This document shows positions 477 through 64,000 of a stretch of DNA of 64,000 nucleotides, in pieces; the stretch's first letter is position 1, and each line of letters starts with the position of its first letter. A program made the translations under genes and the position numbers. The notes beneath the pieces were generated by a model that was given only the letters and a program-made list of their open reading frames with translations, was not told the DNA's origin and searched no databases. The DNA comes from an uncultured Spirochaetales bacterium. GTDB taxonomy: Bacteria; Spirochaetota; Spirochaetia; CAYLLE01. The stretch covers positions 1,372 to 65,371 of the forward strand of contig CAZUAE010000010.1 in the NCBI GenBank assembly GCA_964618265.1, given 5' to 3'.

Positions 477-1637
477 ATGAACAGCTTTAAAATATCTAGA
501 ATACCAGAATTGTATTATGGTAAAGATACTTTGGATGTGCTACCAAAGGTTCTGCATAGAAAATCTATTAACCGTATACTTCTCGTGACGGGAAAATCGA
601 TACGGGAAACAGAGCCGTTGAATAGTCTTATTTCAAATTTGATTTCCCAAGGTATTAAAATGGCAGATAGCGTTGTTTCGGGAGAACCTTCTCCTGATAT
701 CGTTGATGAGTTGGCTGATACCCTTAAAGAGTTCGATGCCGGCGGTGTTGTTGCGCTGGGAGGCGGAAGTGTTATAGATGCCGGAAAAGCAGCAGCAGCT
801 GCTGCGAAAATGGAAGGATCAATAATTGATTACCTTGAAGGAGTTGGAGAAAAAAACCCCTCCGGCCAAACACTTTTTTTTACTGCAATACCTACCACAG
901 CGGGAACCGGTTCGGAGGCAACGAAAAATGCCGTACTTTCCAGAGTAGGTGCCGATGGTTTTAAGAAATCCCTTAGGCATGAAAACTACATACCCGATGC
1001 AGCTGTTTTAGATCCCAGATTCTCTCTCTCCTGTCCAATTGAAATTACAGCTTCATCTGGTCTCGATGCTCTTACCCAGCTTGTGGAAGCATATATTTCC
1101 ACAATGGCCAACCCGTTTACAGATATGATGGCTGAAGCGGGTATATCCGCTGCAGGAGATTCTCTGGAGAAGCTTATTGAAGGTAACAATAGCTTAGAAC
1201 TCCGGGGAAAAATGGCATATGCAGCTTATCTTTCGGGGATTTGTCTCGCTAATGCAGGTTTGGGCATAGTCCACGGGATAGCGTCTCCAGCTGGAGCGCT
1301 TTATTCCATACCTCACGGAGTGGTTTGCGGTTCTCTGCTTCCGGAAAGCATTCTCTGGACCTCTAAGAAGATTATGTATGAACATCCGGTGATAATGAAA
1401 TACTCTAAGGTATGCAAACTTTTTACCGGATACGATTCCGGTAATAATGAGGAAAATATAAATTACCTTGTAAAAAAACTCCGGGAACTGATTAAGAAAG
1501 GCGGAATTTCAAGGTGGAAAATCTACGGTTTCGATCCAAGTGAAGCTGTTTCTTTAGCAAGGAAAAGTAGTCAGAAAAATCATCCCGTTAGATTGGATCT
1601 TAAAACGGTTTCTAGCATAATTGATTCGGTTATATAA
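477..1637 (+). CDS. iron-containing alcohol dehydrogenase family protein (Fe-ADH / glycerol dehydrogenase-like)
   Basis: 386 aa. It has the GGGSVIDAGKAAA nucleotide-binding motif and the His-rich metal site (IVHGIASP...HG) typical of the family. Confidence 0.7.
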   Translation: MNSFKISRIPELYYGKDTLDVLPKVLHRKSINRILLVTGKSIRETEPLNSLISNLISQGIKMADSVVSGEPSPDIVDELADTLKEFDAGGVVALGGGSVIDAGKAAAAAAKMEGSIIDYLEGVGEKNPSGQTLFFTAIPTTAGTGSEATKNAVLSRVGADGFKKSLRHENYIPDAAVLDPRFSLSCPIEITASSGLDALTQLVEAYISTMANPFTDMMAEAGISAAGDSLEKLIEGNNSLELRGKMAYAAYLSGICLANAGLGIVHGIASPAGALYSIPHGVVCGSLLPESILWTSKKIMYEHPVIMKYSKVCKLFTGYDSGNNEENINYLVKKLRELIKKGGISRWKIYGFDPSEAVSLARKSSQKNHPVRLDLKTVSSIIDSVI

Positions 1638-1721
1638 ATCTGATGACGGCAAAATCAAGATTGATTTTTACAGATCTATAAAAACATAATTTTTGCATTA
1701 GAAGACAAGGAAGGATTAAAA

Positions 1722-2636
1722 GTGTTTTTAACCATAGGATTAAATCCGGTATTACAAAAAACATTACTATTAAAAGGACTGCACGAAAACGAAGTGAACC
1801 GTTCCTCGGAATATTTTCTGGATGCCTCCGGGAAGGGGATAAATACGACGCGGGTTTTAGCGCACCTGGATGAACCGGTTGTGCATTTGACCCACGCTGG
1901 TGGGAGAAACCGGAATCTTTTCTTTAACCTGGCTAAGAGCGATGGAATCAATCTCCACGGTATAGATTCCGGTTCTGAGATACGGTTCGGTTATACCCTC
2001 TTGAACCGGTTAAAGAATACAACCACCGAAATAATAGAGGAGGCAGCGCCGGTAGAAACGGGTACGCAGGAAAGGGTTTTGGAAAAATATGAAGAACTGC
2101 TGAATGATGTCTCTTTGGTGATTTTTTCCGGTTCCAAAGCGGCTGGATACACGGATGACCTGATTCCGGAGATGGTACGGTTGGCAAAAACAAAGGAGAA
2201 GAAGGTTGTTCTTGATGTCCGGGGAGCTGATCTGACAGGGTCTCTTGATTACCATCCCGACATAATAATGCCTAATCTGTCGGAATTTGTATGTACCTTT
2301 ATGCAGGAAGATGTCGATTTCCTCAGTGAACATCTCGAGGACGCAGAAACTTTAGAACGGGTAGGCAGAGAAATGCTCAACCTTTACAGCAAATTTGGTT
2401 CTATAACGGTTCTTACCAGAGGCAAATTATCAACTCTGTATGTTTGGGAAAATAATATCGGCTTCCTTGAACCTGAAACACTGAAACCGATAAACACTAT
2501 AGGCTGTGGAGACGCTTTTACTGCAGGATTTTCTTCCGCCTTTATGAAAAATCAGGAGATTCCCCTGGCGGTCGAAAAGGGACACTTGTGTGCCCGAAAG
2601 AATGCGGTTCTTCTTCGTCCGGGAGTCCTCCGGTAG
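1722..2636 (+). CDS. PfkB-family sugar kinase (1-phosphofructokinase / tagatose-6-P kinase-like)
   Basis: 304 aa. The N-terminus (NPVLQKTLLL) and the C-terminal GCGDAFTAGF motif match the PfkB signature. Confidence 0.65.
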   Translation: MFLTIGLNPVLQKTLLLKGLHENEVNRSSEYFLDASGKGINTTRVLAHLDEPVVHLTHAGGRNRNLFFNLAKSDGINLHGIDSGSEIRFGYTLLNRLKNTTTEIIEEAAPVETGTQERVLEKYEELLNDVSLVIFSGSKAAGYTDDLIPEMVRLAKTKEKKVVLDVRGADLTGSLDYHPDIIMPNLSEFVCTFMQEDVDFLSEHLEDAETLERVGREMLNLYSKFGSITVLTRGKLSTLYVWENNIGFLEPETLKPINTIGCGDAFTAGFSSAFMKNQEIPLAVEKGHLCARKNAVLLRPGVLR

Positions 2637-2704
2637 AGGTTCTTATCTGCAATGTATTCCTCGAAACAGCAGTTCCCGGGTAATTACTGCTTCCGGAAGT
2701 TCTT

Positions 2705-4459
2705 TTATGACTGTTCCAGTTTCAGTGTGATGGTGGGATCGTCACAAATTTCCGGCGGCCCGTAGTATTGTACTGCTCCGGGATACCGATAGGTGGTTTC
2801 CAGAGCCCACCGTTCACGGTGCTCCTTGAAGGTAAGAAATGGTTTTCTCTTCGTTTCCACCATGGCTTTCCGTATTACCGGTTTCTTAAAGCCATGCCGC
2901 TGTTCCATGTTCATCATCATCACAAGCGGTATACCTCCCGCTTCCCACTTATCCCTTCCTGATGCGAGATTCCTGACCGCGGAAATGTAGCCCGTCAGGC
3001 CTTCCGCTATCAATAGAAAAGCGGTGAATCCTAAGGAGTAGCAGTAGTCGGCGTCGAAATTTGACGGAAAGGCGCATCTGCCTTCGTACCCGAAGAAGTG
3101 ACTTTGAGAACTGAATTTTCCGGTAAATCGGCCTTCGTTTTTCATTTCTTTCAGACGGTCGCTGGTCATTTCAATCAGCAGTTTTTCCGTTTCGATTCTG
3201 GATACCTGTACATTGCCGTGAGGGTCACGGTCCATGAGAAGTTGTCTTTGGATGTCCGTGGGGAGAGAAGAAAAAACATAGGATGAGTCTCTGCTGAGGT
3301 TCTTGTTCACCCATTCCGACTGATCCTCATAGGTATTCAGGGTAGTAAAATGAGCCGTATGGTGTGCCAAAAGATCGTTTAATTCACCGATAAGACTTTT
3401 CATCTCCGGAATAAATTCGATGAGTCCTTCAGGAACCAGGGCTACACCGAAATTTTCATCCTTTTCCGAACGTTTTACAATCACATTCACGATGCATTCA
3501 ATTATATCATCTAAGGATTGTTTTTCCTCGGCGATTTCCTCGGATATCAGAGTTACATTAGGATGTGTTTGCAGGGCGCACTCTAAGGCGATATGAGAGG
3601 CTGACCTGCCCATGAGTTTGATAAAATGCCAATACTTTTTAGCGGAGTTTGCGTCTCTTTCTATGTTTCCGATTAGTTCCGCGTAGGTTTTTGTTGCTGT
3701 GTCAAAGCCGAAGGAGGTTTCGATGTACTCATTTTTTAAATCGCCGTCGATGGTTTTGGGAACGCCGATTACCTGGATGGGTAGCCCCTCCTTTACGAAA
3801 TACTCTGCCAGGAGTGCCGCGTTTGTGTTGGAATCGTCACCGCCGATTACCACTAAGGCATCAACGCCGCGCCGGGAGAGCACTTTAGTAGCATTTTGAA
3901 ATTGTTCCTCCGTTTCCAGTTTTGTTCGACCGGAACCGATCATATCGAATCCGCCTGTATTACGGTATTCATCGATAATATCCTTTGTTATTTTCAGTAC
4001 ATCATCCTTGAGTATTCCCGATGGGCCTCCTCGAAAACCCAGGAGTGTGGAGTCGGGATTCCCCTTTTTGAGTCCGTCGAATAATCCTGCTATTACATTG
4101 TGTCCTCCTGGAGCTTGACCACCTGAGAGGATAAGACCCACCGTTAGAGAGTGAGATTTATTCTTTCCCTTACCCGCCTTAAAACGGGCCACGGGTTTAC
4201 CGTAGGTTTTGGCAAATAGAAGGCGCAGGTCCTCTGTGTCTCCTATTGATTCTGTAGGATCACCTAATGCCAATTCTATTTTTCCCAGGTCCTCCTGAAG
4301 AACAGGGGGAAGGTTTGGGGAGTAATTGAAGCGCTCGTTCTGCAGCGGTGAATAGTCCACGGAAATCTCCTTACGTTTATCGGTTGATATAGGCACGAGA
4401 CTTTTTCGTGCTGTTATAGTGTGAGTTACAATTCTACCCGGCGAGCGGCAAAAGATCAA
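2705..4459 (-). CDS. pfp: pyrophosphate--fructose-6-phosphate 1-phosphotransferase (PPi-dependent phosphofructokinase, long form)
   Basis: 584 aa. It has the PFK-fold motifs [16 protein letters not shown] and [10 protein letters not shown], and its length matches the long PPi-PFKs. Confidence 0.8.
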
Positions 4460-4730
4460 CGGGGATAAGCTTATCTTAGGAAGAAGGCAAATCTAAATTG
4501 CGAATTTGGAATTGCTCAAAACCCCTCCGGTGAGTTCTCAGTAAACACGATGATTCTCCAAATTGCCATGATTTCCTCAAACACTCTCCGGTTTATCGGC
4601 CAATCGGCCCTGGCGATGGAAGGAGTTCCCTGCAAAACTGAGGTAACCCAAAGCGGTTGAGGAAAGTTATAAAAAATATTGGTATAATAACAATTCGTTG
4701 ATTATAATAAAAGCTGACCGAGGGTATATC

Positions 4731-5081
4731 ATGAGTGAAGGACAGCAAAAAAAATACCGGGTAGATCTTAACTTTGAGTCAGTATCCTTTCCGCCGATTA
4801 ATGATATCCTGGTTTTGGGAAATCAATGCCCTCAGGGAAAAAAGGGACTTTATCTCTGTTTTGAGCTGATGGCCCCGGGCAGTTTTGAACTCATCGAAAT
4901 TGAACATCCGGTTGTGGAGGCGGTACTCATCAACAAAAAAATACTTAAAAAGATGGATAAGAAGAGAATCCTCAATATACTTGAGCGGGAGGTGTTTTCC
5001 TTTCTTTCCGAAAATGAAATTCTCAATGTTAAATTTAATATTACAATCTCTGTGGATTCGATAAAAGGATCATTAGACTAG
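4731..5081 (+). CDS. hypothetical small protein
   Basis: This ORF lies upstream of the sensor kinase. The start was moved to the internal ATG at 4731 (MSEGQQ), which follows GAGGG. No recognisable motifs. Confidence 0.35.
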   Translation: MSEGQQKKYRVDLNFESVSFPPINDILVLGNQCPQGKKGLYLCFELMAPGSFELIEIEHPVVEAVLINKKILKKMDKKRILNILEREVFSFLSENEILNVKFNITISVDSIKGSLD

Positions 5082-5108
5082 AATCATTAGACAGGAAAAG
5101 AGGAATCC

Positions 5109-7391
5109 ATGACAATTGAAACTCTGTACCGGCGGGATTTTACGGTTATAAATCCATATGTGAGTGTGGCGGAAATAAAACATCTTCTTTTAAAGAAGTG
5201 CTGTCTCGTGATGATGGAAGGAGAAAAATACGCGGGACTTCTTACTATCCGGGATATCGTTGAAAATCCTAAGGTGCTGGCTGTCGATTGTATAAAGCCC
5301 ACCAAGGAGCTCCATCCGGAGATGACGGTAAAAGAAGTAACGGAGGTCATGGTCAGGGAAGGGAGCGAGTTCTTGCCCGTTCTTGAAGGTGACGCATTTA
5401 AGGGTATTCTTTTTTACTCCGATCTTTTAGGCTGCCTGGAAATTACCGAGACAGCACTGAGCAGATCAGAACGGAAGTACGAGTTTCTTTTTAACAATAT
5501 TCTGGATTGTATATTCATCTTTACCCTTGAGCGTGAGAATAACCTGATTAAAATAAGAGACGCCAATACAAGCGCTTGTCAAACGCTGGAGTACACCAGG
5601 AAGGAACTAGTATGCCTTCCCTTTGAAATCCTGGTCTCGGAAAAATCGCTCCATGGCTTATCTTCGATAATAAACACTCTTATCAAACAGTCCGCCGCTC
5701 AATCTGAAATCGAAATGATCACAAAGAGCAGAAGATCAATAACTTTTGAGTTTTTCCTGCGGTTCATCCATTTTGATGATGAGGAAACCATCTTTGCAGT
5801 GGGAAGAGATATTACCGAACGGAAAAAGGCGGAGACTGAATTAAATTCCAGCAGGGAGAAGCTGCGGATAGCCCTGAACTCAGCCGGGAAAAGTGTGTGG
5901 GAGTGGGATATTCCCGGGCGTACCATTCAAATATCTAAACAGGTTCCTAAGCTTCTGGGGTACCTGCCGGAAGAGGGTACCATATCAGAAGATGATCTTC
6001 AGACCCTTCTTGGGAAGGAAGAAAACAACCGGCTGAAAACATTGATTCAGAAACATCTTAGGAATGAACTGCCTGTCATCGAAGAGGAATTTCAGGTTAC
6101 TACTGCAGCCGGAAGTTCCAGATGGATACAGGTGGAAGGCAAAATAATAGAACGGTCTGATTCGGGAGACCCCGTTAGGCTCTTGGGTATTGTCTCGGAT
6201 ATCGAGAATAAAAAACGGACCGAAGAGATGCTCAAGAAGGCCAAAGAGGAAGCGGAGGAAGCCAACCTCCGAAAAAGCCTCTTTATCGCGGATTTTGGCC
6301 ATGAGGTGAGGAATGCTTTGAGCAGTGTTTCCGGAGTTGCCGATCTTCTTGGTCAGCAGGAGACCATAGATAGACAGGAAATGGAGGAGTATATCGATAT
6401 TCTCAAGATGAGTTCCGGTACCGTGCTGGAACTCGTGAAAGATATTCTTGAATTTTCGAAAATTGAAGTTGAGGAACTCCGCCTTGAATCAACCTGTTTT
6501 GATTTACACAAATTGGTACATTCAGTGGTTCGGCTTTTTTCTATTAAAAATAATAATCAGGATTTAATCTTCGATACTCATGTTTCTCCGGATGTTCCCC
6601 GTCATCTTCTGGGTGATCCCACGCGGCTTTCCCAAGTACTAACGAATCTTATTGGTAATGCTGTAAAATTCACCGGTAAAGGGTCTGTTATCACGGAAGT
6701 ATCGATGAAAGAATACAGGGATACATCGGTATCCATTAGTTTTTCAGTCCAGGACACCGGTATCGGAATTTCAGCGGAGAAGCTGGAGAAAATTTTCCGT
6801 CCTTTTAACCAGGCCGATTTTTCAATCTCTCATAAATTCGGCGGTACAGGATTGGGGCTTGCCATAAGCAGAAAACTGGTAAACGCCATGGGAGGCGATA
6901 TTCAAGTGGAAAGTGAACCAGGGAAAGGCAGCACCTTTTCCTTCTGGGGGACATTCAAGCTGCAGGAATCTCCGGGCAATTTCAATAAAGAAAAAAATAA
7001 AGTTCCGGAAGAAAAAGAACCGAAAAAACCGATGCATGTTCTGATTGTGGAGGATGATGAGCTAAGCGGTAAGATTGCTGAAAAATTATTTGAAAAAAAT
7101 GTCGACAAGGTGACTGTGGCAGCCGGCGGTCAGGAAGCCCTATCTTTGGTGGAGGAAAACGCGTACGATCTTATCGTCATGGATGGGCACATGGAAGGTT
7201 TAAATGGAATTGAAGTTACCCGCAGAATAAGGGAGCTGGAAAGAGAGAGAAGAGCCTATACGCCTATTGTAGCATTAACGGGCGATTCAGGGCTTAACAT
7301 CCACAGGGGCTTTAGACAGGCCGGTGCGGACCGTGTACTCATTAAGCCGTTGGATTTGAAAAAGATAAGCGATATCTTGCGGGAGACCTAA
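5109..7391 (+). CDS. hybrid sensor histidine kinase / response regulator (CBS pair - PAS - HisKA - HATPase_c - REC)
   Basis: 760 aa. It contains an H-box (FGHEVRNAL), an HATPase region (IGNAVKFT...DTGIGI...GGTGLGLAI), a C-terminal receiver (VLIVEDDE...LIVMDGHM) and an N-terminal CBS-like pair. Confidence 0.75.
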   Translation: MTIETLYRRDFTVINPYVSVAEIKHLLLKKCCLVMMEGEKYAGLLTIRDIVENPKVLAVDCIKPTKELHPEMTVKEVTEVMVREGSEFLPVLEGDAFKGILFYSDLLGCLEITETALSRSERKYEFLFNNILDCIFIFTLERENNLIKIRDANTSACQTLEYTRKELVCLPFEILVSEKSLHGLSSIINTLIKQSAAQSEIEMITKSRRSITFEFFLRFIHFDDEETIFAVGRDITERKKAETELNSSREKLRIALNSAGKSVWEWDIPGRTIQISKQVPKLLGYLPEEGTISEDDLQTLLGKEENNRLKTLIQKHLRNELPVIEEEFQVTTAAGSSRWIQVEGKIIERSDSGDPVRLLGIVSDIENKKRTEEMLKKAKEEAEEANLRKSLFIADFGHEVRNALSSVSGVADLLGQQETIDRQEMEEYIDILKMSSGTVLELVKDILEFSKIEVEELRLESTCFDLHKLVHSVVRLFSIKNNNQDLIFDTHVSPDVPRHLLGDPTRLSQVLTNLIGNAVKFTGKGSVITEVSMKEYRDTSVSISFSVQDTGIGISAEKLEKIFRPFNQADFSISHKFGGTGLGLAISRKLVNAMGGDIQVESEPGKGSTFSFWGTFKLQESPGNFNKEKNKVPEEKEPKKPMHVLIVEDDELSGKIAEKLFEKNVDKVTVAAGGQEALSLVEENAYDLIVMDGHMEGLNGIEVTRRIRELERERRAYTPIVALTGDSGLNIHRGFRQAGADRVLIKPLDLKKISDILRET

Positions 7392-53735: not shown

Positions 53736-53811
53736 CGGGCTGTAGCGCAGTGGTCTAGCGTACATGACTGGGGGTCATGGGGTCGGCGGTTCAAATCCGC
53801 CCAGCCCGACC
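53736..53811 (+). tRNA. tRNA-Pro (anticodon GGG)
   Basis: Folded by hand:
- acceptor CGGGCTG/CAGCCCG
- D arm GCGC-AGTGGTCTA-GCGT
- anticodon stem CATGA/TCATG with loop CTGGGGG
- variable loop GGGTC
- T arm GGCGG-TTCAAAT-CCGCC
- discriminator A, then CC. Confidence 0.8.
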
Positions 53812-53923: not shown

Positions 53924-56794
53924 TTACTGCTTTGTATACACCGTGATATTCCCGCTGGTATGACATCCATGGGCTATTTCCGCTATACCGTCGGCGTTTA
54001 GATCGCCTGCAATGACCCGGTCGCCCTTGTAAAAAACATTGGTTATGGATCCCAATTCGGTAAACCCGCCGCTGCCTTCGGAACCGTCCCACTGGATGAT
54101 GTATATGTCGCCGTTTCCGTCGTTTTCCTGGCTTGCTCCCCAGATTATTTCATCGATTCCGTCGCCGTTGACGTCTCCTGCCGCAATTGAATCCCAATAC
54201 ATGATGTCCACGCCGGGCGTGTAAGCTGCTATTACGTTTCCATTACTGATGTCGTAAATCTGTATTTCGCCGAGGTAGTTTTCTCCTAAAGGATCGTGCT
54301 TTAAGATTATTACTTCAGCCTGATTATCTCCGTTTAATTCTCCCACAGTCATCTGATCCCCGTCAATATACCTCTGGGGAAGATCTCCTGTCACCGGCCC
54401 ATTGTCCGGATACCGTATTTCTATCTCATCCGCGGTATTCAGAGCTGTTGCAAACTCCCAGCCGGGAAATGTCCCGTCCAGGTTTCCCGCGCCGATACAG
54501 TCGCCCGGGTTTGTACCATAGCCGGTGATTTCCGAAACAATCTTGTCCGAAGCTGTTGACCGGGGGTCTATGACATATATATTATCGTCGTAATCCATAA
54601 AGATGATCTCATCCAGATAGTCGCCGCTGGATTCACCGTCTACATTGAGCTTTTCTTCGTCCCTGTGGTAAAAATCGCCGCTGGATATTCTGTCTCCGTA
54701 AATCCAATTATCGTTACTGTCTTTCGCGCGGTCGAAAGGGAATCCGAAAGCAGCGTTTGTATCGAATGATTTTACTTCCTCCATCGTCCCGTCGGTTTGG
54801 TTGTATTGGTACAGGTAAAAGTAATCCTGGGCTACACTGTGCAGCAGTTCGAGATATCCGGATCCTCCCGAATCAACGAAATCTCCCATGGTCAAATCCT
54901 CGAATTGCTGGAATGCGGTACTGCCGGAGAGATTGATAGCCGCGAACTGGGAAAAAGTGAGTGTATCCGCGTCCAGGGTGGAGAAAAATTTTACCGATGA
55001 GGCAAGGTCGTTAGCATTGGAATCCGACAAATATTTGATATCTTCGGTAAGGATTACCTTCTTCCCGCGGAAATTGGGCTGGTCGTAGAGCGCCGCCTGA
55101 AAGTCTCCTTTTATGATGACTGACGATACCGTGTTGTCGGCAGCTGTTCCCGAATCCAGGGTTTCCTGGCTCAGATCCAGAATGTTCCCGTCTCCCAATG
55201 GCGTAAAGGTCCTATAATCCCCTTCATAATTGCTGTGTTCAAAAAGAGTGATTCCGTCGGGAAGACTTTCTCTGTTTACCGAATCATCGGTAACGGGGCC
55301 GTATATTGCGGGGTGAGTCTGATCGTCTCCGTCGGTTGCTTCTTCGTAATCATTTCCGTCAGAATCTCCGTCACTGTTGGTGTTGTTGTCATCGGTGCCC
55401 CAGGAGAGTTCCTGCCTGGCTGTTAAACCGTCGCCGTCCTTGTCTTCGGTATGAAAGATGAGGACATTGTCACCGGCCTGTATTTCTATCTCGGAAAGAT
55501 CATAACTTATATCCGGAGTGTACCAGTCGGTGCCTTCCATTCCCTCTCTGGTGTAGGTGTGGATAATGATCCAGTAGCCTGCGGTTTCACCGGTTAAAGC
55601 CCCGTCCGCGGTAATATCGTTGAAAGTTTTTAGATTGGTCTGGTCTGTTCCGTTGCAGGTTACGGTACCGATTTCATATTCCAGGTTTAAAATGTCGGTA
55701 ACCGCGGCAGCCAAAGTTGTACCGGGCTCGTTCTGCTTGTAATTGGTAGCCACTAAATATTTCTCGGGCACCAGGGGATTACCGTTACTGTCTTCTAACC
55801 CCGGACCGTAATCAATAATTATGGAAGTAGTTTTGGTTCCTATTTCGGTGGTGTTGTGGACATACGGTTTTTCATTTTCATCGACTAATTCATAACTTTC
55901 CACATCAATTATCAAATTCTGTGTATCCCGAAGAAGCTTGTGGGTTGTACCGAGATCCATGTCGCCCCCGTATTTAAGCTGAAAACTCTCACCCGGTGCT
56001 AACGAAAATGATTGAAAGGTTGAAGTTCCGGTATCCCTGTTGAGCCCGCAAACAGGAGATAAACTCTCCGGTATGACAGGATCGAATTCGGTTGCCTTTA
56101 GATAGAGATTTTTAACGGTGAAAGCAATATCACCGATGTTGGAGATTTCAATTATGGTCTGAAGTTCTCCATTGGCTTCCGAATATTCATTGTTTTTTTC
56201 ATAAGACCGGCATTGATTGTATGTGTCCCTTTTTGAGGCTGTTTGGCTGGCGGAGAAGCTTGTTGAATTAGACGCGGTTGATGTGTAGGAGTAGCTGTAT
56301 TCGGCACTTACCGTCGTTTTTACACCGGTGACGCTGTATTCCTGCTCAGCTCCCAATTTTACGCCGTGCGTATGTGATGCCGATTTCGTTGCCGTCGTGG
56401 TCTGGTCTTTACTCCTGGATGTGGCGGTTTCCGTACCCCAATCCTGCGAGACGGTATTCGATGATCCTTCCGAGGTCGTATAATGAACCACGATAGACGG
56501 GAGGCTCTGCAGGGTAAGGCCAATCTTCGGAACATCCGCGACCCTCGGATTAAATTTATGGGGATTTACGGAAGGGTTAAATTGATATGTTGTAATTTCA
56601 TCTCCGTCACTGTACCCGTCTCCATCTGTGTCGTATAAATCCGGGTTGGTGTGGTAGATAGAGATCTCATCAGTATCTTTAAGTCCATCACCATCAGTAT
56701 CGTCTGAAGATGAGTTAGGACACCCAATAGAAGTAACTAGAAAAGCTGACAGTATGATAAAAAAAATCAATAATGGTGAAAATTTTAGTTTCAT
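53924..56794 (-). CDS. large surface lipoprotein with TSP3-like Ca-binding repeats, beta-gamma-crystallin domain and FG-GAP repeats
   Basis: - Start reset to MKLKFS (ATG 56794, after AAGGAGAG).
- Lipobox LVTSIGC.
- DTDGDGLKDTDE / DTDGDGYSDGDE repeats.
- Greek-key motifs (FEHSNYEGDYRTF; YDQPNFRGKKV).
- C-terminal GDVNGDGIDEI / GDLNADGIAEI FG-GAP motifs. Confidence 0.7.
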   Translation of the reverse strand: MKLKFSPLLIFFIILSAFLVTSIGCPNSSSDDTDGDGLKDTDEISIYHTNPDLYDTDGDGYSDGDEITTYQFNPSVNPHKFNPRVADVPKIGLTLQSLPSIVVHYTTSEGSSNTVSQDWGTETATSRSKDQTTTATKSASHTHGVKLGAEQEYSVTGVKTTVSAEYSYSYTSTASNSTSFSASQTASKRDTYNQCRSYEKNNEYSEANGELQTIIEISNIGDIAFTVKNLYLKATEFDPVIPESLSPVCGLNRDTGTSTFQSFSLAPGESFQLKYGGDMDLGTTHKLLRDTQNLIIDVESYELVDENEKPYVHNTTEIGTKTTSIIIDYGPGLEDSNGNPLVPEKYLVATNYKQNEPGTTLAAAVTDILNLEYEIGTVTCNGTDQTNLKTFNDITADGALTGETAGYWIIIHTYTREGMEGTDWYTPDISYDLSEIEIQAGDNVLIFHTEDKDGDGLTARQELSWGTDDNNTNSDGDSDGNDYEEATDGDDQTHPAIYGPVTDDSVNRESLPDGITLFEHSNYEGDYRTFTPLGDGNILDLSQETLDSGTAADNTVSSVIIKGDFQAALYDQPNFRGKKVILTEDIKYLSDSNANDLASSVKFFSTLDADTLTFSQFAAINLSGSTAFQQFEDLTMGDFVDSGGSGYLELLHSVAQDYFYLYQYNQTDGTMEEVKSFDTNAAFGFPFDRAKDSNDNWIYGDRISSGDFYHRDEEKLNVDGESSGDYLDEIIFMDYDDNIYVIDPRSTASDKIVSEITGYGTNPGDCIGAGNLDGTFPGWEFATALNTADEIEIRYPDNGPVTGDLPQRYIDGDQMTVGELNGDNQAEVIILKHDPLGENYLGEIQIYDISNGNVIAAYTPGVDIMYWDSIAAGDVNGDGIDEIIWGASQENDGNGDIYIIQWDGSEGSGGFTELGSITNVFYKGDRVIAGDLNADGIAEIAHGCHTSGNITVYTKQ

Positions 56795-56970
56795 GCTCTC
56801 TCCTTTTGAAAACTGCCTCAGCTGAAAACGATTACTGTTTGTATAAAGCGGCTGCAAAAAAATAGGATTTTGCAGGAATCATCCAAACAATAATTTTTTA
56901 AAATGATACACAAGGGCTTAATGACATCAATTTAGCACATAGAAGAAAGAAAAACAATATTATTTAATAC

Positions 56971-57079: not shown

Positions 57080-58204
57080 ATGGATAAAAAATTAATAGAC
57101 CGCTTTGTTGATGCAAACAGCGATGAGCTAGTCCGTCTTATCAAAGAAATTACTGCCATTCCCTCTCCAACCGGCAATGAACAGAGGAAAGCTGAATATA
57201 TAAAAAAACTCCTGGATAATATACCCGGTTCCACCGGGGCTGAAATTGATCAGGAGGGAAACGTCCTTTTGTGGCACGATTCGCGGGAGTATAAGAAAGT
57301 AACTCTTGCTGTTGCCCATATTGATACGGTCTTTGACGGTACCCGGGAAATACATCCGGAGATAAAAGATGGTTATCTCTGTGCGCCATCCGTAGGTGAT
57401 AATAGTGCAAATACCGCGGCTTTAATTTTGGCAGCCAGATATATAATAGAAAAAAACTGCCGGCCTGACGGGGGTATCCTTTTTGCTTTTTCCGTGGGAG
57501 AAGAGGGAATGGGGAATCTTCAGGGGATGAGGCATCTTATGGCTAAATATAGTGATGAGATTGCGGAAGTCATTGCCGTTGACGGAAAAAGTGAAAAGGT
57601 GATGAATCAGGCGGTGGCCTCCAAACGGTTTTCCGTCCGGGTAACGGCACGGGGCGGTCACAGCTGGCATGATTTCGGGAGCGGTAATGCTATCGAAATT
57701 GCCGCGGAAATAATCAGAAGAATTTATGACATAAAGGTTCCCCGTGATCCCCGTACAACCTATAACATCGGCTTGTTTGAAGGGGGGAGAAGTGTGAACT
57801 CCATCGCCGAAGAGGCATCCTTCTCCATGGATATGCGGAGTGTGGATAAACCAGCGGTAAATCGTTTGGAGAAAGAATTCCGGGATACCGTGACAAATGC
57901 GGCAAAGGAGTTTGCCCACCTGGGAGGCAGTGCCGATATTGACCTGCTTGCAGAAAGACCGGGTGGGAAGACACCGGAGGACAGCGGTTTGATCCGGAAG
58001 GTCAAAGAAGCCGGAAACCTGCTGAATATGCCGATCTATTTTTATCCCTCCAGTACGGATGCAAATATATCCATCAGTCTGGGAATACCATCTGTAACTT
58101 TTGGAATTTACCGGGGAGAAGGCGCCCATACCATGCACGAACGGATCGAAATTGATTCTTTAGTCCAAGGCATGCGGTTTCTCCTCTATGTCTTGACAAT
58201 ATAA
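57080..58204 (+). CDS. M20 family metallopeptidase (peptidase T / ArgE-like)
   Basis: It has AHIDTVF and the IPSPTGNE N-terminus. The start is set at ATG 57080 (MDKKLIDRF). The track start at 56981 runs through the repeat arm. Confidence 0.65.
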   Translation: MDKKLIDRFVDANSDELVRLIKEITAIPSPTGNEQRKAEYIKKLLDNIPGSTGAEIDQEGNVLLWHDSREYKKVTLAVAHIDTVFDGTREIHPEIKDGYLCAPSVGDNSANTAALILAARYIIEKNCRPDGGILFAFSVGEEGMGNLQGMRHLMAKYSDEIAEVIAVDGKSEKVMNQAVASKRFSVRVTARGGHSWHDFGSGNAIEIAAEIIRRIYDIKVPRDPRTTYNIGLFEGGRSVNSIAEEASFSMDMRSVDKPAVNRLEKEFRDTVTNAAKEFAHLGGSADIDLLAERPGGKTPEDSGLIRKVKEAGNLLNMPIYFYPSSTDANISISLGIPSVTFGIYRGEGAHTMHERIEIDSLVQGMRFLLYVLTI

Positions 58205-58214
58205 TTGGAGCTTC

Positions 58215-59642
58215 ATGATGAAGAAAACGAATGTTTGTGTGATATTTACCGAGCAGCACCGCGGAGACTGTCTCTCCTGCGAGGGGCATCCCGTCCTTCT
58301 TACTCCCAACATAGACGAGTTGTGGGGAAAAGGAGCAAGATGTTCTCATGCCTACAGCGCCGCTTCGGTTTGCGTCCCCGCGCGCCGGAGTTTCCTGTCA
58401 GGACAGTTTCCCGAAACCTACGGTATTTTCGGGAATCCCAATGTGGAATGGAACGCACCTACCCTTCCCGGGATATTAGGCGGTAAGGGATATCAGACAT
58501 ACATGATCGGCCGGAGCATGCACCAGACACCGGTTTGGAAGCGGTACGGCTTTGATCATATGGAAATTTTCGATCACCGGGCGGACCGGGACGATTACGA
58601 CCGGTACCTGGAGCAATACCAGCCCCCGGGATCCGGGGGATACTACGGCACCGGAGTGATGCATAACGACTGGAGCGCCCGGAGCTGGCACATGAGTGAC
58701 GGTCTGCACCGGGACGCCTGGACCACAAACCGGGCTCTGGATTTTCTCCAGCGGCGGGATCCCAGTTCTCCTTATTTTATGGTCTGCAGCTACATAGGGG
58801 CTCATCCGCCCCTTATTCCGCCGCGATTCTACTTTGACCGGTACCTCCGCACCGGGGTGCCGGATCCGGTAATCGGCGACTGGGCAGTTAAGCCTCCGGA
58901 TGACGGACTGGGTTTTGGAGTTTGCCCCGCGGGGCCGGAACGGCTCATGGTCAACCTGAAAGGGGAAGCTCTGCTTTCCTGCCGGGCCGGTTATTACGGT
59001 CTTATTAATCATATTGATGACCAGCTTCACCGGATATTCATTGCCATAGAAAAACAGAATAAAAAGCGGAACGAGGAAACTATTTTCATTTTCTTTTCCG
59101 ATCACGGGGAGATGCTGGGAGACCACTATCTGTGGCGGAAGGGACTGCCCTACGAAGGCTCTTCCCGGATCCCCTTTCTGGTCCGGGCGCCTGAGCGTTT
59201 CGGCATTACCCCCAGAACTATTGTGGATGCTCCGGTGGGAATTGAAGACATAATGCCCACCGTCTTGGAAATGCTGGATGTTGATGTTCCGGACAGTGTG
59301 GACGGAAGGAGCATTCTTCCGCTGTTACAGGGAAAAAAGGCCGAAGATTGGCGGCCCTATATGCATCTTGAATCCGCCTGTACCATACCTTTTCAAGGAC
59401 TTACCGACGGAGAGGAAAAGTTTGTCTGGTTTACCGAGGACGGCCGGGAACAGTTCTTCGATCTTAAATCGGATCCCGGTGAAACCCGGAATCTTATTGA
59501 TGATCCTGAAAGGCAGGAACGTATCCGCTGGTGGCGGGAGGAGCTTACCGGCGTTCTGGAGAACCGTCCTGAAGGCTTTGTTAAAAACGGAAAACTCACT
59601 CCCGCTCCTTTTCCGGTGGTTCAGCCGGGCAGAGGATATTGA
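58215..59642 (+). CDS. sulfatase (arylsulfatase family)
   Basis: 475 aa with the CxPxR formylglycine motif (SVCVPARRSF) and N-terminal metal-binding residues. Confidence 0.75.
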   Translation: MMKKTNVCVIFTEQHRGDCLSCEGHPVLLTPNIDELWGKGARCSHAYSAASVCVPARRSFLSGQFPETYGIFGNPNVEWNAPTLPGILGGKGYQTYMIGRSMHQTPVWKRYGFDHMEIFDHRADRDDYDRYLEQYQPPGSGGYYGTGVMHNDWSARSWHMSDGLHRDAWTTNRALDFLQRRDPSSPYFMVCSYIGAHPPLIPPRFYFDRYLRTGVPDPVIGDWAVKPPDDGLGFGVCPAGPERLMVNLKGEALLSCRAGYYGLINHIDDQLHRIFIAIEKQNKKRNEETIFIFFSDHGEMLGDHYLWRKGLPYEGSSRIPFLVRAPERFGITPRTIVDAPVGIEDIMPTVLEMLDVDVPDSVDGRSILPLLQGKKAEDWRPYMHLESACTIPFQGLTDGEEKFVWFTEDGREQFFDLKSDPGETRNLIDDPERQERIRWWREELTGVLENRPEGFVKNGKLTPAPFPVVQPGRGY

Positions 59643-59864
59643 CCCGGGAACCGGGAACGGGCTTACCGGACCGGCGGAAACGCCCTGTTTCTGGCAGTGC
59701 TCTGCGGGTTTCTGATGATGGTACTCGGGCTGAAAGGCGTCTGGATTTCCTTCCCCGTCGCGGATACTCTGGCATCTCTGGTTACCGTTCTCTACCTGCT
59801 CTGGGACAGGAAGAAACAGCGGACTGAGCTGCGGCAGCTACCAAATAACTTCCCGCCTAGTTGA
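59643..59864 (+). pseudogene. C-terminal fragment of a MATE/Wzx-like membrane transporter
   Basis: The translation is ...NALFLAVLCGFLMMVLGLKGVWISFPVADTLASLVTVLYLLWDRKKQ... Only the last ~2 TM helices remain, and no N-terminal part is present. Confidence 0.35.
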
Positions 59865-59944
59865 ACTAAAATTTTTTGTCAGACTATAAATAAGCATGCT
59901 GATCCTGGATTATTTTCTGACAATTACCCCGGGTTTGGTGCTCG

Positions 59945-60211
59945 GTGCTGCCCTGTTTTTCTTATCTGTACGGCTGGCTTACCGACAAGGAAAATATGAA
60001 GCCTGTCTTCGCGGGGCTTTTATCGGGAGTGTTCTTTTCCTTCGGTCACATTTTTCTTGCGTATAATGTAAGGAACGTTGGGATAAGCATTCTGATTTTT
60101 GCCCTCTGGGAAGGATGCCTTGCCGGTCTGGTACGGTTCCGGTTCGGTCTGATTCCTGTAGTCCTAACCCACGGTTTAGCTGTTTTCGTGCTGACCTCCG
60201 GGTTGTTCTAG
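59945..60211 (+). pseudogene. C-terminal fragment of a CPBP (CAAX protease/Abi) family membrane protein
   Basis: 88 aa with an FSFGH (FxxxH) motif and two C-terminal TM helices. The upstream EExxxR part is absent, and an alternative frame upstream also looks membrane-like. Confidence 0.35.
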
Positions 60212-60329
60212 AAACAATCGATACTAACGTATCCTTCTGAACAGCTTCAGTTTATGCTTCGAAAAATAATGTACGTTTTATGTAATAAACATTGAACTAA
60301 TCCCTCGGTTTTCCGTCATAGAGGTGTAG

Positions 60330-60887
60330 ATGAAGAGTGATGAAGAACTGCTGGAAGCTATAGCAGAAAAAAATGAAAACGCCTTCGACCTCCTCTATCA
60401 GCGCCATAAAACCGCTGTGTATCGGGCAATCATCCGGATAATACGGAATCCTGATACCGCCCGGGAGCTCTGTACCGAAGCCTTTGTTAAAGTATGGAAC
60501 CGGTGTGATCAGTGGGACAGGCGGGGTCCCGGCGGCGCGTGGATCAGAAGGATTGCCGTTAATACGGCCCTTGACTGGTTTAGGTCGAGGGAAGGAAAAA
60601 TTGAAGCCGCTTCAGTCCGACGGAGGGTAGAGGAGTTTTCCGGCCTTCCGGAAGGCAAAGACGCGGAGCCGGATTATCTGCTTATCAGGCGGGAATTACG
60701 CCGGACGGTGCAGGAAACGGTGCAGCAGCTTCCTGAAAGTAAAAAAGAAATTATATCACTCTTCCTTGAGGAAGATTTGACCACCCAGGAGATGGCTGAA
60801 CGGCTTGGAATTCCCGAAGGCACGGTCAAATCGAGGTTCTATTATGCCAGACTGGATTTAAAGAACCGGCTGGCAGATGAGATTTAA
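60330..60887 (+). CDS. ECF-type sigma-70 family RNA polymerase sigma factor
   Basis: 185 aa. It has region 2 (LLYQRHKTAVYRAIIRI...FVKVWNR...AVNTALDWFRSR) and a region 4.2 HTH (QEMAERLGIPEGTVKSRFYYAR). Confidence 0.8.
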   Translation: MKSDEELLEAIAEKNENAFDLLYQRHKTAVYRAIIRIIRNPDTARELCTEAFVKVWNRCDQWDRRGPGGAWIRRIAVNTALDWFRSREGKIEAASVRRRVEEFSGLPEGKDAEPDYLLIRRELRRTVQETVQQLPESKKEIISLFLEEDLTTQEMAERLGIPEGTVKSRFYYARLDLKNRLADEI

Positions 60888-60896
60888 GGAGGAAAA

Positions 60897-63746
60897 TTGA
60901 TGAATGATTGTTCTTGGCACAGAGAATCGATGATCAGATTTTACAAGGAGTATCTTCAGAAATTAGGCAAAGGATTATTTACGGTTACATGCTCAAATAC
61001 CGGCAGATATACTCTGGATTTGAGAATTGCCTGGGCTAATGAGGAGACCGATTATACCGAGCTCCCCCTTCCTGATGACCGGGGTGTTTTTTCTGTGGAC
61101 GGTAATAACGTTGTAGTTATACCGATTGCCGAAAAGCCCGATTTCGCGGGAGGAACCGTTCTCTGTGCCGGAGAGCAGGTTCGGGATTTTTTCCTGGACC
61201 GGATAGATCCGGAGACAGAATCCGCCGGGCTTCCTGTCGATATTTTATTGCGTGATTTTCTGGACTCCCGGGGACAGATCTGGGACGAAACAAACGTCTG
61301 CACCCGTATAATCCATCCGAGACGGCTCCTCAATCCGGAAGGTTATGAGTTCTTTCCGGAATCCTGGGAAGGTATTTTTTGTCCGGTGGATACGCCTGAA
61401 GGAAAAGAGGGTAAGGTTGTTACCTTGGCATCGGGCGCTTCCATTGTCCGGGGGATGCTGGTGGGAGCCGGAAAAAAACTTGAGGACCGGATCGGTCCGG
61501 TAACATCGTCGATTCCCTTTCTCCTGTTTAACCGTCCACCCAGGATACAGGTGGCCCTATCCCTGATGCGGACCTGCCGTTTTCTGGAAACGGCGGAACC
61601 GGCCTTGGTCCGGACAGGATTCGAACCGGAAGACCCTGACTTCTGGTACGGCAGAAATCTGCTTACCGTTTACTGTTCCATGGGGCCGGAGACTCATGAA
61701 GAGGGAATTGTCCTTCGCCGGGGGGCGGCGGAAGCCCTCGGGTTTCCCGGCGATTCCGCCCTGGGTATAAGGCTCGCTAACCGGCATGGCCAGAAGGGGA
61801 TCGTTTCCGCGGTAAAGACTGATAAAAGCATGCCCGTACTGGAAGACGGAACTCCCGCGGACGCGGCGGTGGACCCGGTAAGCATCCATGCCCGGGGGAA
61901 CATCGGCCAGCTGCTGGAAGCTTCTGTAAGCTGGGAAGCGGAAACGGAAGCCGGTTTTGTAACGGCTGGTCTGGGAGGGCCCCTTCCGGTATTGCCGGAA
62001 AAACACAAGCAGATCCTTCGGATAAATGGAAAAGCCTTAGAGAACCCGAGTATTGCCGGCAGGGTCTATTGGGGTGTGTCGGTGATGGACTCCCGGAACC
62101 GGATGTCAGTTTCCCGGGGTTCCGCGGACTGCATGCTTCAGGGACGGATGGAGAAGGATGTGCTGCTCCGAAAAAAAGCTTACCGTATACTCCGGGAACA
62201 GGCGGGAAAATTAGCGGAACTGCAGAATCGGGAATCTGAATTCTCCCATAGTTTTGAAGAAGTACGGAACCGGCTCGCGGCTTCCGGTATAAAAACGGAA
62301 GGAGACGGACGGAAAGGGCTTGCCTTTACTTGGGATGAACCCGAGGGAGAAGCTGTTCTTGAATTGTCCGTTCCCCGGCCCCATCCATGGTTTCCCAGGA
62401 AGCTGCTAAAAACCGCGGCCCGTCAGGGAGAAGAAAGGCAGCTCTGGAACCGGCTGGTCCGGGAAAATAAAAACACCGGGAAGACAGGCGGGCTTCCCCG
62501 GTCACTTAAAAAAACAGTTCTGTCGGATTTCGACGCGGCGCTGAAGACGTATTTCAGCCGGCTCCTTACGGAGCAGCACATGACTATCCGGGGAAAGGTC
62601 CGGAGATCGGCCCGGGGAATGTTCGCCCCGGATTTTTCGCTTGGATTGGACGAGATCGGACTTCCCTCCGGGATCGCCCTTGATCTTTTCGGAAGGGATG
62701 AACAGGGACGCTGGGTTCTGGACGCCGAAGAACCGGAATCCGGAGGGGAGATCAGCTCTGAAATCAAAAAACTGCTGACCCGTGAAATGGCCGCCGGCCG
62801 GGTCCTCCTGAACCGGGCCCCTACCTTTTCGGATACCGCGCTTACGTCGTTTAAACCGGTCCCGGCAAAGGGACCCGCGGTTACCATCAATCCGATCCTC
62901 TGTGAGTGGTTCAACCTCGATTTCGATGGTGATCAGGGTGCGGTATTTGTAATGGTTTCTGAGGAAACCGTACGGGAGGCGGAAGAGCTTCTGTCGGTTA
63001 AAGCTCACCTTGCTGCTGATTCTGCCCAGGCGGCGAAGCTTGCTCCGGTTCAGGGGGCCATGACGGGGCTCGCTTTCCTTTCCCTCACGGAAGAGGGACG
63101 CGCAAAGATCAGCCGGATTCTGCGGCGGACCATTCCCCCCGGACTTTTAATCCGGGATAATTGCAAGGAGTTCTTGATAGAGTCGGTCAAGACTTTAGAA
63201 TACGGTGACTTTGAGTCTACCGTCCGGGATTTGTGGGAGTCAGGTTTTCACAGGTATATGGAAACAGGATATTCTCTGTATCCCGGGGGAGTACTTGAAC
63301 TCTCGGAGCGGATAGCGCCTTTACCGGACAGCGGCAGCTCACCGGAGGAGAATGAGGCCGTTTCCGGACTTATCCGGTCGCTGGATAAATATGAACAGGA
63401 GGCGTTCGGATTTCAACTGCTCGCGGTTAAAAGCGGAGCCAGGGGATCGGTACATGATCTGTTGGACCTCTGCGCACTTATCAGCGGGGAAAGTTACCGC
63501 GTGTTTTATCTGAAGGCGGCGGAGAATCACCGGCGGATTACAGAAACCATGAGTAACTGGAAAAATAAAATTGTCGCGGGGTTTCCGGATTACCGGGAGT
63601 ATACTCCCGTCGGAGAAGGGGTTATTGCCAGGGCCATGCGGAGTCCGTATCCCGGGGCAGTTTTCGCGGCGGCAGCGGAGACCGGGGAGCTGGATACGCT
63701 GACCGACCGGGATTCCCGGATTTTCGCGGGTTTAGGAGCGGAGTAG
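60897..63746 (+). CDS. single-chain RNA polymerase-like protein with fused beta-like and beta-prime-like catalytic cores (two double-psi beta-barrels)
   Basis: 949 aa, starting 10 nt after the sigma gene with AAGGAGG.
- Beta-like motifs: [12 protein letters not shown] (aa 161-172), [27 protein letters not shown]...[31 protein letters not shown] (aa 295-341).
- Beta-prime-like motifs: [35 protein letters not shown] (aa 564-598), LLNRAPT (637-643), [13 protein letters not shown] (673-685), SGARGS (846-851). Confidence 0.7.
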   Translation: [949 protein letters not shown]

Positions 63747-63936
63747 AATCCTTAGCCGCGGTTCGGAGAAGGATATGGGAAGCCGTGAGAAAAGCTATTG
63801 GACAAAACCGGCTTCCTTCATTTATACTACGTGAAATTTTAAAAGGAGAATAAAAGATATTCAGAACATCCTACAAGGTTCTTTTAGGGATAACTACCGT
63901 TGCGGCTATCTGCGGGATACTCACCCTTATCCCCAT

Positions 63937-64000
63937 GAAGGGCGCCTCATATCCGAATATCCTCGGATATAAATCACTCTGCGCCTTCGTTCCGGCGGGG
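63937..64000 (+). CDS. 5' end of a hypothetical ORF (MKGASYPNILGYKSLCAFVPAG...), truncated by window edge
   Basis: An ATG at 63937 opens a frame that runs to the window end. Confidence 0.25.

Follow-up and report, generated by a model that had tools for sequence, protein, structure and literature searches.

The DNA considered here is a stretch of 64,000 nucleotides (nt), hereafter the window, from an uncultured Spirochaetales bacterium (contig CAZUAE010000010.1 of assembly GCA_964618265.1, positions 1,372 to 65,371). Close to its end lies a compact unit that we read, with a probability of a little under 60%, as an operon for a dedicated sigma factor of the extracytoplasmic function (ECF) type and a single-chain DNA-dependent RNA polymerase (RNAP) of about 105 kDa, which would be minimal, directed by that sigma factor and autoregulated. 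A preliminary description of the window had put forward a miniaturised two-barrel RNAP in a single chain, accompanied by an ECF sigma factor of its own. Its observation is confirmed, and its core interpretation is supported by the fold, the catalytic residues, a ratio of nonsynonymous to synonymous substitution rates (dN/dS) of 0.19 and the presence of the sigma gene at 24/24 loci; taken as a whole, the interpretation is partly supported. The observation also extends to a widespread and unannotated family within the two-barrel RNAPs, whose sigma partner and promoter are conserved. The unit in the window consists of the following features.

60293-63746 (+): two-gene operon unit, made up of a promoter, an ECF sigma gene and a single-chain polymerase gene.
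60293..60317 (+): ECF-type promoter TGAAC-N16-CGTC, the version of the window clade, ending 13 nt upstream of the sigma ATG.
60330..60887 (+): gene of the sigma-70 family, ECF type (group 4), 185 amino acids (aa), with only the sigma-2 and sigma-4 domains.
60888..60893 (+): Shine-Dalgarno sequence AGGAGG of the polymerase gene, which abuts the sigma stop codon and lies 6 nt ahead of the ATG at 60900 (read directly in the sequence).
60900..63746 (+): single-chain beta/beta-prime fusion ("mini-RNAP"), 948 aa; the reading frame is open from a TTG at 60897 (949 aa).

Both open reading frames (ORFs) of the preliminary description, the sigma gene at 60330-60887 and the polymerase at 60897-63746, were found as described. 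The sigma gene ends in a TAA at 60885-60887, as read directly from the DNA. Because AGGAGG precedes the ATG at 60900, this codon is the probable start of the polymerase, giving a product of 948 aa, identical to P0001 in the database; residue numbers below refer to this product, and those of the preliminary description are higher by one. The proposed coupling of the two genes through a good ribosome-binding site is borne out by the consensus AGGAGG and the 12-nt gap between the sigma stop codon and this ATG.

Profile searches for RNAP domains, a check that the preliminary description had proposed, gave two Pfam matches above the gathering cutoffs: RNA_pol_Rpb2_6 at aa 290-354 (E 9.5e-13, 48 bits against a cutoff of 23) and RNA_pol_Rpb1_2 at aa 623-701 (E 7.4e-17, 62 bits against 25). 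A match to Rpb2_3 was weak (E 0.011). The best phmmer matches in the PDB were bacterial beta-prime (9e-16) and beta (4e-13) chains, and a profile of the family matched E. coli RpoB at 9e-89 and RpoC at 8e-57. Such matches are well beyond what chance would give, and the first refuting outcome named in the preliminary description, a lack of significant profile hits, does not apply. All of the beta and beta-prime motifs listed in the preliminary description are present and align to homologous E. coli positions, and both double-psi beta-barrel (DPBB) domains, one of beta type and one of beta-prime type, are found. Canonical subunits are matched in short blocks, at no more than ~30-45% identity. 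Among the NCBIfam models, those for beta, beta-prime and fused beta/beta-prime were matched, with 50-90 bits against equivalog cutoffs of 800-5400: TIGR02013 (rpoB) 50 bits against 801, TIGR02386 (rpoC) 61 against 963, and the fused models PRK14844 and PRK09603 90 against 4632 and 87 against 5372. Because these scores lie so far below the cutoffs, and with an incomplete domain set, we ruled out that the polymerase is an orthologue of rpoB, rpoC or rpoBC.

A structural check had likewise been suggested. An AlphaFold2 (AF2) model based on an alignment of 70 family sequences reached a mean predicted local distance difference test (pLDDT) score of 92.3 and a predicted template modelling (pTM) score of 0.91; an earlier alignment of 6 sequences had given just pLDDT 38. 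The top Foldseek matches of the 70-sequence model in the PDB were all RNAP beta and beta-prime chains, so that an RNAP-like fold is confidently predicted. It is the high pTM alone that speaks for the modelled mutual orientation of the two barrels. No full-length viral structural analogue was found in BFVD.

The conservation of the catalytic residues was counted over 70 family representatives (50% clustering). The Mg-binding aspartates D460, D462 and D464 of E. coli beta-prime correspond to D674, D676 and D678 in the window:

62919..62933 (+): Asp triad D674-F-D676-G-D678, within NLDFDGDQ in the beta-prime DPBB, aligned to E. coli D460, D462 and D464.

The three are conserved in 68, 68 and 67 of the 70 representatives. 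Loss of this triad in orthologues, which the preliminary description had named as the mark of a non-catalytic relic, is therefore not the pattern of the family. Other positions (E. coli numbering) are as follows; among them, R678, K1065, K1073, R1106 and H1237 are the basic residues with which beta binds substrate and template, and the family retains them.

beta-prime G463: 69/70; G677 in the window.
beta-prime R425: 59/70; R639 in the window.
beta-prime R731: 65/70; R848 in the window.
beta R678: 69/70; R215 in the window.
beta R687: 69/70; R224 in the window.
beta K1073: 66/70; K299 in the window.
beta R1106: 69/70; R332 in the window.
beta K1065: 62 K and 5 R of 70; R291 in the window.
beta H1237: 63/70; M396 in the window.

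The catalytic positions rank among the most conserved, although family members share only ~30% identity overall, and this argues for selection on catalysis in the family. In addition, the window gene is under purifying selection: comparison with a 90%-identical relative (L007) gives the dN/dS of 0.19 mentioned above, with values of 0.11-0.32 in every segment.

These results bear on the possibility that the polymerase gene is an artefact or a relic, i.e., a chimera assembled from rpoB and rpoC or a decaying pseudogene. Some members of the family could be taken in this sense. In one Poribacteria locus (L016:7977-11096) the first catalytic Asp is replaced by Asn (NANFDGD), and polymerase or sigma genes are split by frameshifts in three metagenome-assembled genomes (MAGs) derived from nanopore reads (L011, L021, L023); these changes could be sequencing errors or real decay. 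However, more than 24 independent loci share this architecture, some of them on complete chromosomes, and it recurs in ~130 clusters, while the window gene has an intact frame, matches canonical subunits only in short, diverged blocks and has the low dN/dS just given. We consider the chimera and pseudogene readings to be excluded by the recurrence, the number of clusters and the dN/dS, with a negligible residual probability. The chimera scenario that the preliminary description had raised fails in particular on the recurrence of the architecture in independent assemblies, among them long-read chromosomes.

To see which parts of a canonical RNAP are present, the family profile was aligned to E. 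coli RpoB and RpoC with hmmsearch, with PDB beta chains as a parallel. The main parts of the polymerase are listed here.

60900..62339 (+): beta-derived half, aa 1-480, from the profile comparison with E. coli RpoB and PDB beta chains and from motif alignments.
62436..62567 (+): homologue of the beta-prime clamp helices, aa 513-556, a helical hairpin that aligns to E. coli beta-prime 266-311 within a 141.7-bit domain.
63432..63575 (+): SGARGS motif and shortened bridge-helix region, aa 845-892, from the profile comparison with E. coli beta-prime 709-795; no trigger loop follows.
63621..63743 (+): C-terminal segment resembling the conserved C-terminal region of beta-prime; one of the family's most conserved blocks, with a weak profile match to 1322-1354.

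In E. coli numbering, the family keeps beta 118-148, 448-579 (with fork loop 2 and CPxETPEGPNIG), 652-707 (with a motif ending in RQ), 792-821 (with ED), 1054-1147 (the DPBB, with GDKxxxRHGxKG) and 1177-1341, the last being the C-terminal part of the clamp, up to the C-terminus. Lost from beta are the lobe (149-447) and the flap together with sequence insertion 2 (SI2; 822-1053). From beta-prime, 266-516 (clamp helices, SGR) and 709-795 (SGARG, F-loop, bridge helix) are kept, and 77-125 (where HIWF becomes HPWF) and 1322-1354 are matched weakly. Beta-prime 1-76 and 126-265, into which the zinc-binding domain and the lid fall, are unmatched, and 796-1321 has no counterpart, i.e., the trigger loop, sequence insertion 3 (SI3) and the jaw are gone between the bridge helix and the C-terminal block. 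In the putative bridge-helix region, which would connect the barrels, the AF2 model has a long helix at 866-892; in the window clade residue conservation within the helix is weak, and a deletion of ~20-26 aa ahead of it is common to this clade and the clade of L001. The pruned polymerases are ~950-1040 aa long, compared with ~2750-2890 aa for full-length beta/beta-prime fusions.

The clamp helices deserve emphasis, as in canonical RNAPs they are the dock for sigma region 2. They are modelled at 513-527 and 534-555 with pLDDT 92-97. The preliminary description had placed a clamp-helix-like sigma dock at aa 420-460. This segment in fact corresponds to 'GEMEVWALEAYGA...' in the C-terminal region of beta (~1270-1310 in E. 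coli), and the clamp-helix homologue is the hairpin at aa 513-556. The adjacent rudder (E. coli beta-prime 312-336) is absent in 70/70 family members. That the clamp helices are kept while their neighbour is deleted in all members counts in favour of a sigma-directed polymerase.

The family shares with canonical RNAPs (rpoB, rpoC and the natural fusions of PRK14844 and PRK09603) the order of beta followed by beta-prime, both DPBBs, the bacterial-type NADFDGDQ, fork loop 2, the clamp helices, a putative bridge-helix region, the C-terminal beta-prime block and a partner of the sigma-70 family. Unlike them, it lacks the lobe, flap, SI2, zinc-binding domain, lid region, rudder, trigger loop, SI3 and jaw, and nothing at the locus points to alpha or omega partners. 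The non-virion RNAPs of jumbo phages (phiKZ, AR9) are viral enzymes of four polypeptides with a fifth subunit for promoter specificity, and they use unrelated promoters; the family instead combines one chain with a bona fide ECF sigma factor and a classical ECF promoter.

A closer functional parallel is YonO of the Bacillus prophage SPbeta, a single-peptide two-barrel RNAP that is efficient, processive and DNA-dependent, and that works without trigger loop, lid, rudder and flap, at lower fidelity and with no RNA cleavage (PMC5467207). Like YonO, the family consists of one chain of ~100 kDa with both barrels and without these four elements. YonO is, however, a late-gene polymerase of a prophage with no known sigma factor, whereas the family is chromosomal, stands close to the bacterial beta and beta-prime subunits, keeps the clamp helices and always occurs with a sigma gene. 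A relationship in sequence was rejected: hhalign of YonO against the family profile gave a probability of 0.16% and E 0.38, confined to 24 columns around DxDGD, and YonO itself has no Pfam hit. Nor does the family occur in a prophage or phage context, the neighbours of the window module being chromosomal housekeeping genes (argS, nagA, a two-component system) and no member being found in IMG/VR viral contigs. The RNAP of yeast virus-like elements (K2ORF6p/K2ORF7p) is a reduced beta/beta-prime fusion of ~1000 aa with shortened spacing and without lid or rudder; it lacks nearly the whole clamp, including the coiled-coil, and a separate small subunit carries the C-terminus of beta-prime (PMC6211774). 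Judged by that description, the family differs in having the coiled-coil (aa 513-556) and the C-terminal block on one chain, and a bacterial sigma partner.

The product of the upstream gene has the Pfam domains Sigma70_r2 (1e-12) and Sigma70_r4_2 (7e-12) and scores 90.5 bits against TIGR02937 (cutoff 42.9), reaching no specific subfamily cutoff in NCBIfam; these matches identify it as an ECF-type sigma factor (group 4 of the sigma-70 family). The preliminary description had raised the question of whether this neighbour is conserved. Sigma orthologues of 37-40% identity lie directly upstream of family polymerases, and an ECF sigma gene is immediately upstream, on the same strand, of P0004, P0006 and P0007. 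A hidden Markov model built from the sigma factors of these three loci found an orthologue at 190-305 bits upstream of the polymerase in every GTDB locus with upstream sequence, whereas unrelated ECF sigma factors nearby reached at most 95 bits. With L170 and L171, where the sigma gene is also upstream, the total is 24/24 loci with upstream sequence, in at least seven phyla. The stop codon of the sigma gene overlaps the polymerase start by 4 nt in L004, and the two are 3 nt apart in L005. Pairwise identities of sigma factor and polymerase are strongly correlated (Mantel r 0.96, a value that 0/2000 permutations reach), which shows that the two are co-inherited, with shared species phylogeny contributing to the correlation.

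The unit comprises exactly two genes, since no other neighbour is conserved and the next gene is convergent in most loci. An all-vs-all BLAST of flanking ORFs from the 24 loci revealed no third conserved gene, just the polymerase, the sigma factor and antisense shadow ORFs. One candidate for a third partner, a PHP-domain phosphoesterase, was rejected, being absent in P0005/L170, in P0179/L171 and in all longer members. It is nonetheless a recurring neighbour in two lineages. In the window clade it follows the polymerase (PF02811, 5.4e-7; L088:13260-14042 (+), corresponding to ~64159-64941 in window coordinates, just beyond the window end), with a further copy at L007:3792-3890, and at L001:10829-11530 it is split into two ORFs (the PHP N-terminal part and PHP_C), which overlap the polymerase stop codon.

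ECF operons typically, though not universally, co-transcribe an anti-sigma factor. The family resembles such operons in having the sigma gene first, a co-transcribed partner and an autoregulatory GAAC...GTC promoter, and differs in that the partner is a homologue of the RNAP core and not an anti-sigma factor. This resemblance raises the idea that the polymerase is itself a core-mimicking anti-sigma factor or sigma sink, which would sequester the sigma factor on its clamp helices and damp the loop, any polymerase activity being secondary or vestigial. It would fit that the polymerase gene occupies the usual anti-sigma position, in an order that mirrors sigma/anti-sigma operons, that no anti-sigma domain or gene was detected in any locus (the downstream gene encoding the RNAP-like protein), and that the element on which sigma region 2 docks is kept. 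However, the Asp triad, the basic residues of beta, fork loop 2, NRAPT and the bridge-helix region are kept at 85-99% in a family of ~30% identity, and ~900 residues of RNAP core are maintained at a dN/dS of 0.19. An anti-sigma role therefore leaves the conservation of the active site unexplained, and we consider it improbable.

The promoter upstream of the sigma gene is also conserved. Its consensus in the family is TGAAC-N14-CGGTGTC with fixed spacing, GAAC and GTC being invariant in 19/19 aligned sites, and it is present in 20/20 loci that have enough sequence upstream of the sigma gene. The distance to the sigma start is 13-55 nt (115 nt in L016). The spacer in the window is 1 nt shorter than in the consensus. 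Besides these 20 loci, L011, from a nanopore-derived MAG, has the promoter with a longer spacer of 18 nt. The window promoter is the sole match in 64 kb, where ~0.7 matches are expected by chance, and the promoter is also the sole match in the 22.8 kb of L088; matches to a loose pattern in other loci look random. Because a conserved ECF-type promoter precedes the sigma gene, the operon is almost certainly autoregulated by its own sigma factor, to judge from these alignments. In two Poribacteria, a second GAAC-N16-GTGTC is found ~1 kb downstream of the polymerase (L009:12096-12120 and L014:12177-12201, both on the + strand). It could be a genuine second promoter, or a chance match conserved inside an orthologous gene.

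In the reading that we prefer, the polymerase would have arisen through fusion of bacterial beta and beta-prime, followed by pruning to a catalytic core. Region 2 of the sigma factor would dock on the kept clamp helices (aa 513-556), and the sigma factor would read the -10 and -35 elements, steering the mini-polymerase to promoters of the type TGAAC / (G)GTGTC. The operon's own promoter would be among these targets, which would create a positive feedback loop. The fused core would make RNA without a trigger loop, as YonO does; it would then be insensitive to regulators that act through the trigger loop and the secondary channel, and would probably be less accurate. We infer that the sigma factor confers specificity on the mini-polymerase.

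It is important to emphasize that several observations weigh against this reading. Most serious is the complete deletion of the beta flap, on which sigma region 4 is anchored in canonical holoenzymes; the regions of the lid and the zinc-binding domain are unmatched as well. The promoter has the rigid -35/-10 geometry that is typical of canonical ECF holoenzymes, and the host core together with the sigma factor of the window may read the operon promoter. Moreover, neither the 64-kb window nor the 19-kb loci yielded a second copy of the promoter or a target gene. Finally, the window copy is more derived than any other family member. Its clade carries the substitutions K1065R, H1237M, N684S, Q688T and D1064I; in the window protein, K1065R and H1237M affect otherwise conserved positions, and the deletion before the bridge helix is present. 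Being so derived, the window copy may have an altered activity.

Since the flap is gone and yet the promoter geometry is canonical, a second explanation stays alive, in which the ECF sigma factor works with the canonical core of the host and activates the operon, and the mini-polymerase is an effector independent of the sigma factor. Such an effector might serve in priming, generate R-loops or copy templates that are single-stranded or carry no promoter, for which the loss of lid, rudder and flap would help. Besides the promoter geometry and the missing sigma-4 dock, it would agree with the rule that ECF sigma factors autoregulate through the host core, and with the ability of YonO to function with no known sigma factor. 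However, the main known role of the clamp helices in initiation is to bind sigma region 2, and they have been kept selectively while their neighbours were pruned. In addition, the strict adjacency in 24/24 loci and the tight coupling suggest stoichiometric co-production, which is typical of partners rather than of a regulator and its target. We therefore regard an effector driven by the host core as unlikely, although it is less so than an anti-sigma role. As for the full form of the sigma-directed reading, i.e., an autonomous and orthogonal two-protein transcription system (a core, with an ECF-like sigma factor on its clamp helices, and TGAAC-N14-CGGTGTC) beside the essential five-subunit RNAP, we find the case for and against it evenly balanced.

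When 1.84 billion cluster representatives were searched exhaustively with a profile, the family emerged as ~130 clusters (50% identity) with scores above ~290 bits; ~70 of these are complete in length, at 940-1100 aa. In the same search, canonical fusions of full-length beta and beta-prime are seen only at ~330 bits. A word-indexed protein search returned only seven relatives. Among the representatives of 185,579 GTDB species there are 20 loci, so the gene is accessory and patchy: eight in Chloroflexota, four in Armatimonadota, four in Poribacteria, two in Planctomycetota, one in Spirochaetales and one unclassified. Protein searches added Hydrogenedentota and Limnochordia, for a total of at least seven phyla. 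Several loci sit on complete chromosomes, including long-read ones. The closest relatives of the window polymerase, at 90% and 79% identity, come from Spirochaetia MAGs.

Every named member that was looked up carries the name "hypothetical protein" alone, and the family is therefore invisible to standard annotation. With the PADLOC defence models, there was no match for the polymerase and only sub-threshold helix-turn-helix matches for the sigma factor, and PHROG gave nothing beyond generic RNAP and sigma families. Our best judgement is that the family is undescribed; no description of it was found in open-access papers and bioRxiv, and this absence is not proof. No bacterial mini-RNAP linked to a sigma factor is mentioned in a survey of non-canonical two-barrel RNAPs from 2010 (PMC2919709), and the terms for RNAP subunits that were looked for do not occur in the main text of the paper that reclassified the ECF sigma factors (PMC7826278).

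The searches also brought up other unusual polymerase proteins. P0008 of Latescibacterota was considered as an intermediate and rejected, as it combines an N-truncated beta tail with a near-complete beta-prime that has a trigger loop, and it has no sigma gene. This protein (L006:430-3966, from a MAG, 1178 aa) begins at the beta motif GDKLANRHG, with the N-terminal two-thirds of beta missing; its locus has no upstream sigma gene and a PhdYeFM/PIN toxin-antitoxin pair downstream. Fused beta/beta-prime proteins of 1570-1760 aa with Rpb2_6, Rpb2_7, Rpb1_2 and Rpb1_5 form a further family without annotation, which includes P0338 (L172:6001-11037 / L173), P0307, P0308, P0310, P0316, P0328 and P0339. 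On its 4.7-Mb contig, the P0338 gene is preceded by an AAA_2 ATPase gene and followed by genes for a 351-aa unknown protein (with overlap at the stop codon) and a Sigma54_activat AAA+ protein; no sigma gene was found near it. P0297 (1913 aa, L174:3118-8859) carries Pfam domains of alpha (RNA_pol_A_bac), beta and beta-prime on one chain and may be an alpha-beta-beta-prime fusion; its reading frame stops 12 nt short of the end of an 8.9-kb metagenome contig. Lastly, P0327 of Candidatus Xenobiia (730 aa, on a 3.0-Mb contig) is a stand-alone, shortened beta-like protein with Rpb2_3, Rpb2_6 and Rpb2_7 only, named "hypothetical".

The module of the window is surrounded by ordinary chromosomal genes. 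Those on the upstream side encode a two-component system, an FG-GAP/TSP3 protein, an M20 peptidase and a sulfatase, and those on the downstream side are genes for a PHP protein and amidohydrolases, argS and nagA. No Rfam match was found in the module. Gene remnants lie directly upstream at 59697-59864 and 59945-60211 (+), namely an 88-aa fragment of an Rce1-like CAAX protease (PF02517, 1.2e-5) and a hydrophobic 55-aa ORF with no significant Pfam match. GC content is 52-54% over the last 6 kb of the window (58000-64000) and ~45% in the remainder. The remnants and the GC rise are compatible with rearrangement or acquisition of the region, and a recent acquisition of the module is possible. The idea in the preliminary description that the module arrived by insertion is not supported beyond a weak suggestion from the Rce1-like fragment and the GC rise. 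On the other side, there are no direct or inverted repeats flanking the module, no integrase near the window copy and no tRNA gene adjacent to the module borders. The family locus L001 has an integrase downstream. Elsewhere in the window, a tRNA-Pro(GGG) gene at 53736-53811 (+) adjoins the gene of a 977-aa protein at 53924-56857 (-), which is secreted-looking, with thrombospondin-type-3 and FG-GAP repeats, and which has the M20 peptidase and sulfatase genes next to it; this is ordinary chromosomal context of a polysaccharide-degrading spirochaete.

The five-subunit core of multisubunit RNAPs, ~400 kDa in size, is regarded as almost invariant. To our knowledge, the known minimal two-barrel RNAPs (YonO and those of killer plasmids, crAss phages and jumbo phages) come from phages or plasmids and are too diverged for residue-by-residue mapping to the bacterial enzyme. 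The family, by contrast, is chromosomal, occurs in at least seven phyla, can be aligned block by block to E. coli beta and beta-prime and is always paired with a sigma factor. If the sigma-directed reading is true, it would be the smallest sigma-dependent RNAP of cellular type known, a natural "minimal holoenzyme", and the flap, lid region, rudder, zinc-binding domain, trigger loop, alpha and omega would all be dispensable for promoter-specific initiation. If active, the enzyme would define the minimal RNAP elements for sigma-dependent initiation, would pose the problem of placing sigma region 4 when there is no flap, and would offer synthetic biology a compact orthogonal transcription module of two genes. 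An active enzyme would also raise the question of the role of a second polymerase in the cell. Speculatively, it may serve as a backup when antibiotics target RNAP or during phage shut-off; it may also act as a bistable switch or in specialised RNA synthesis.

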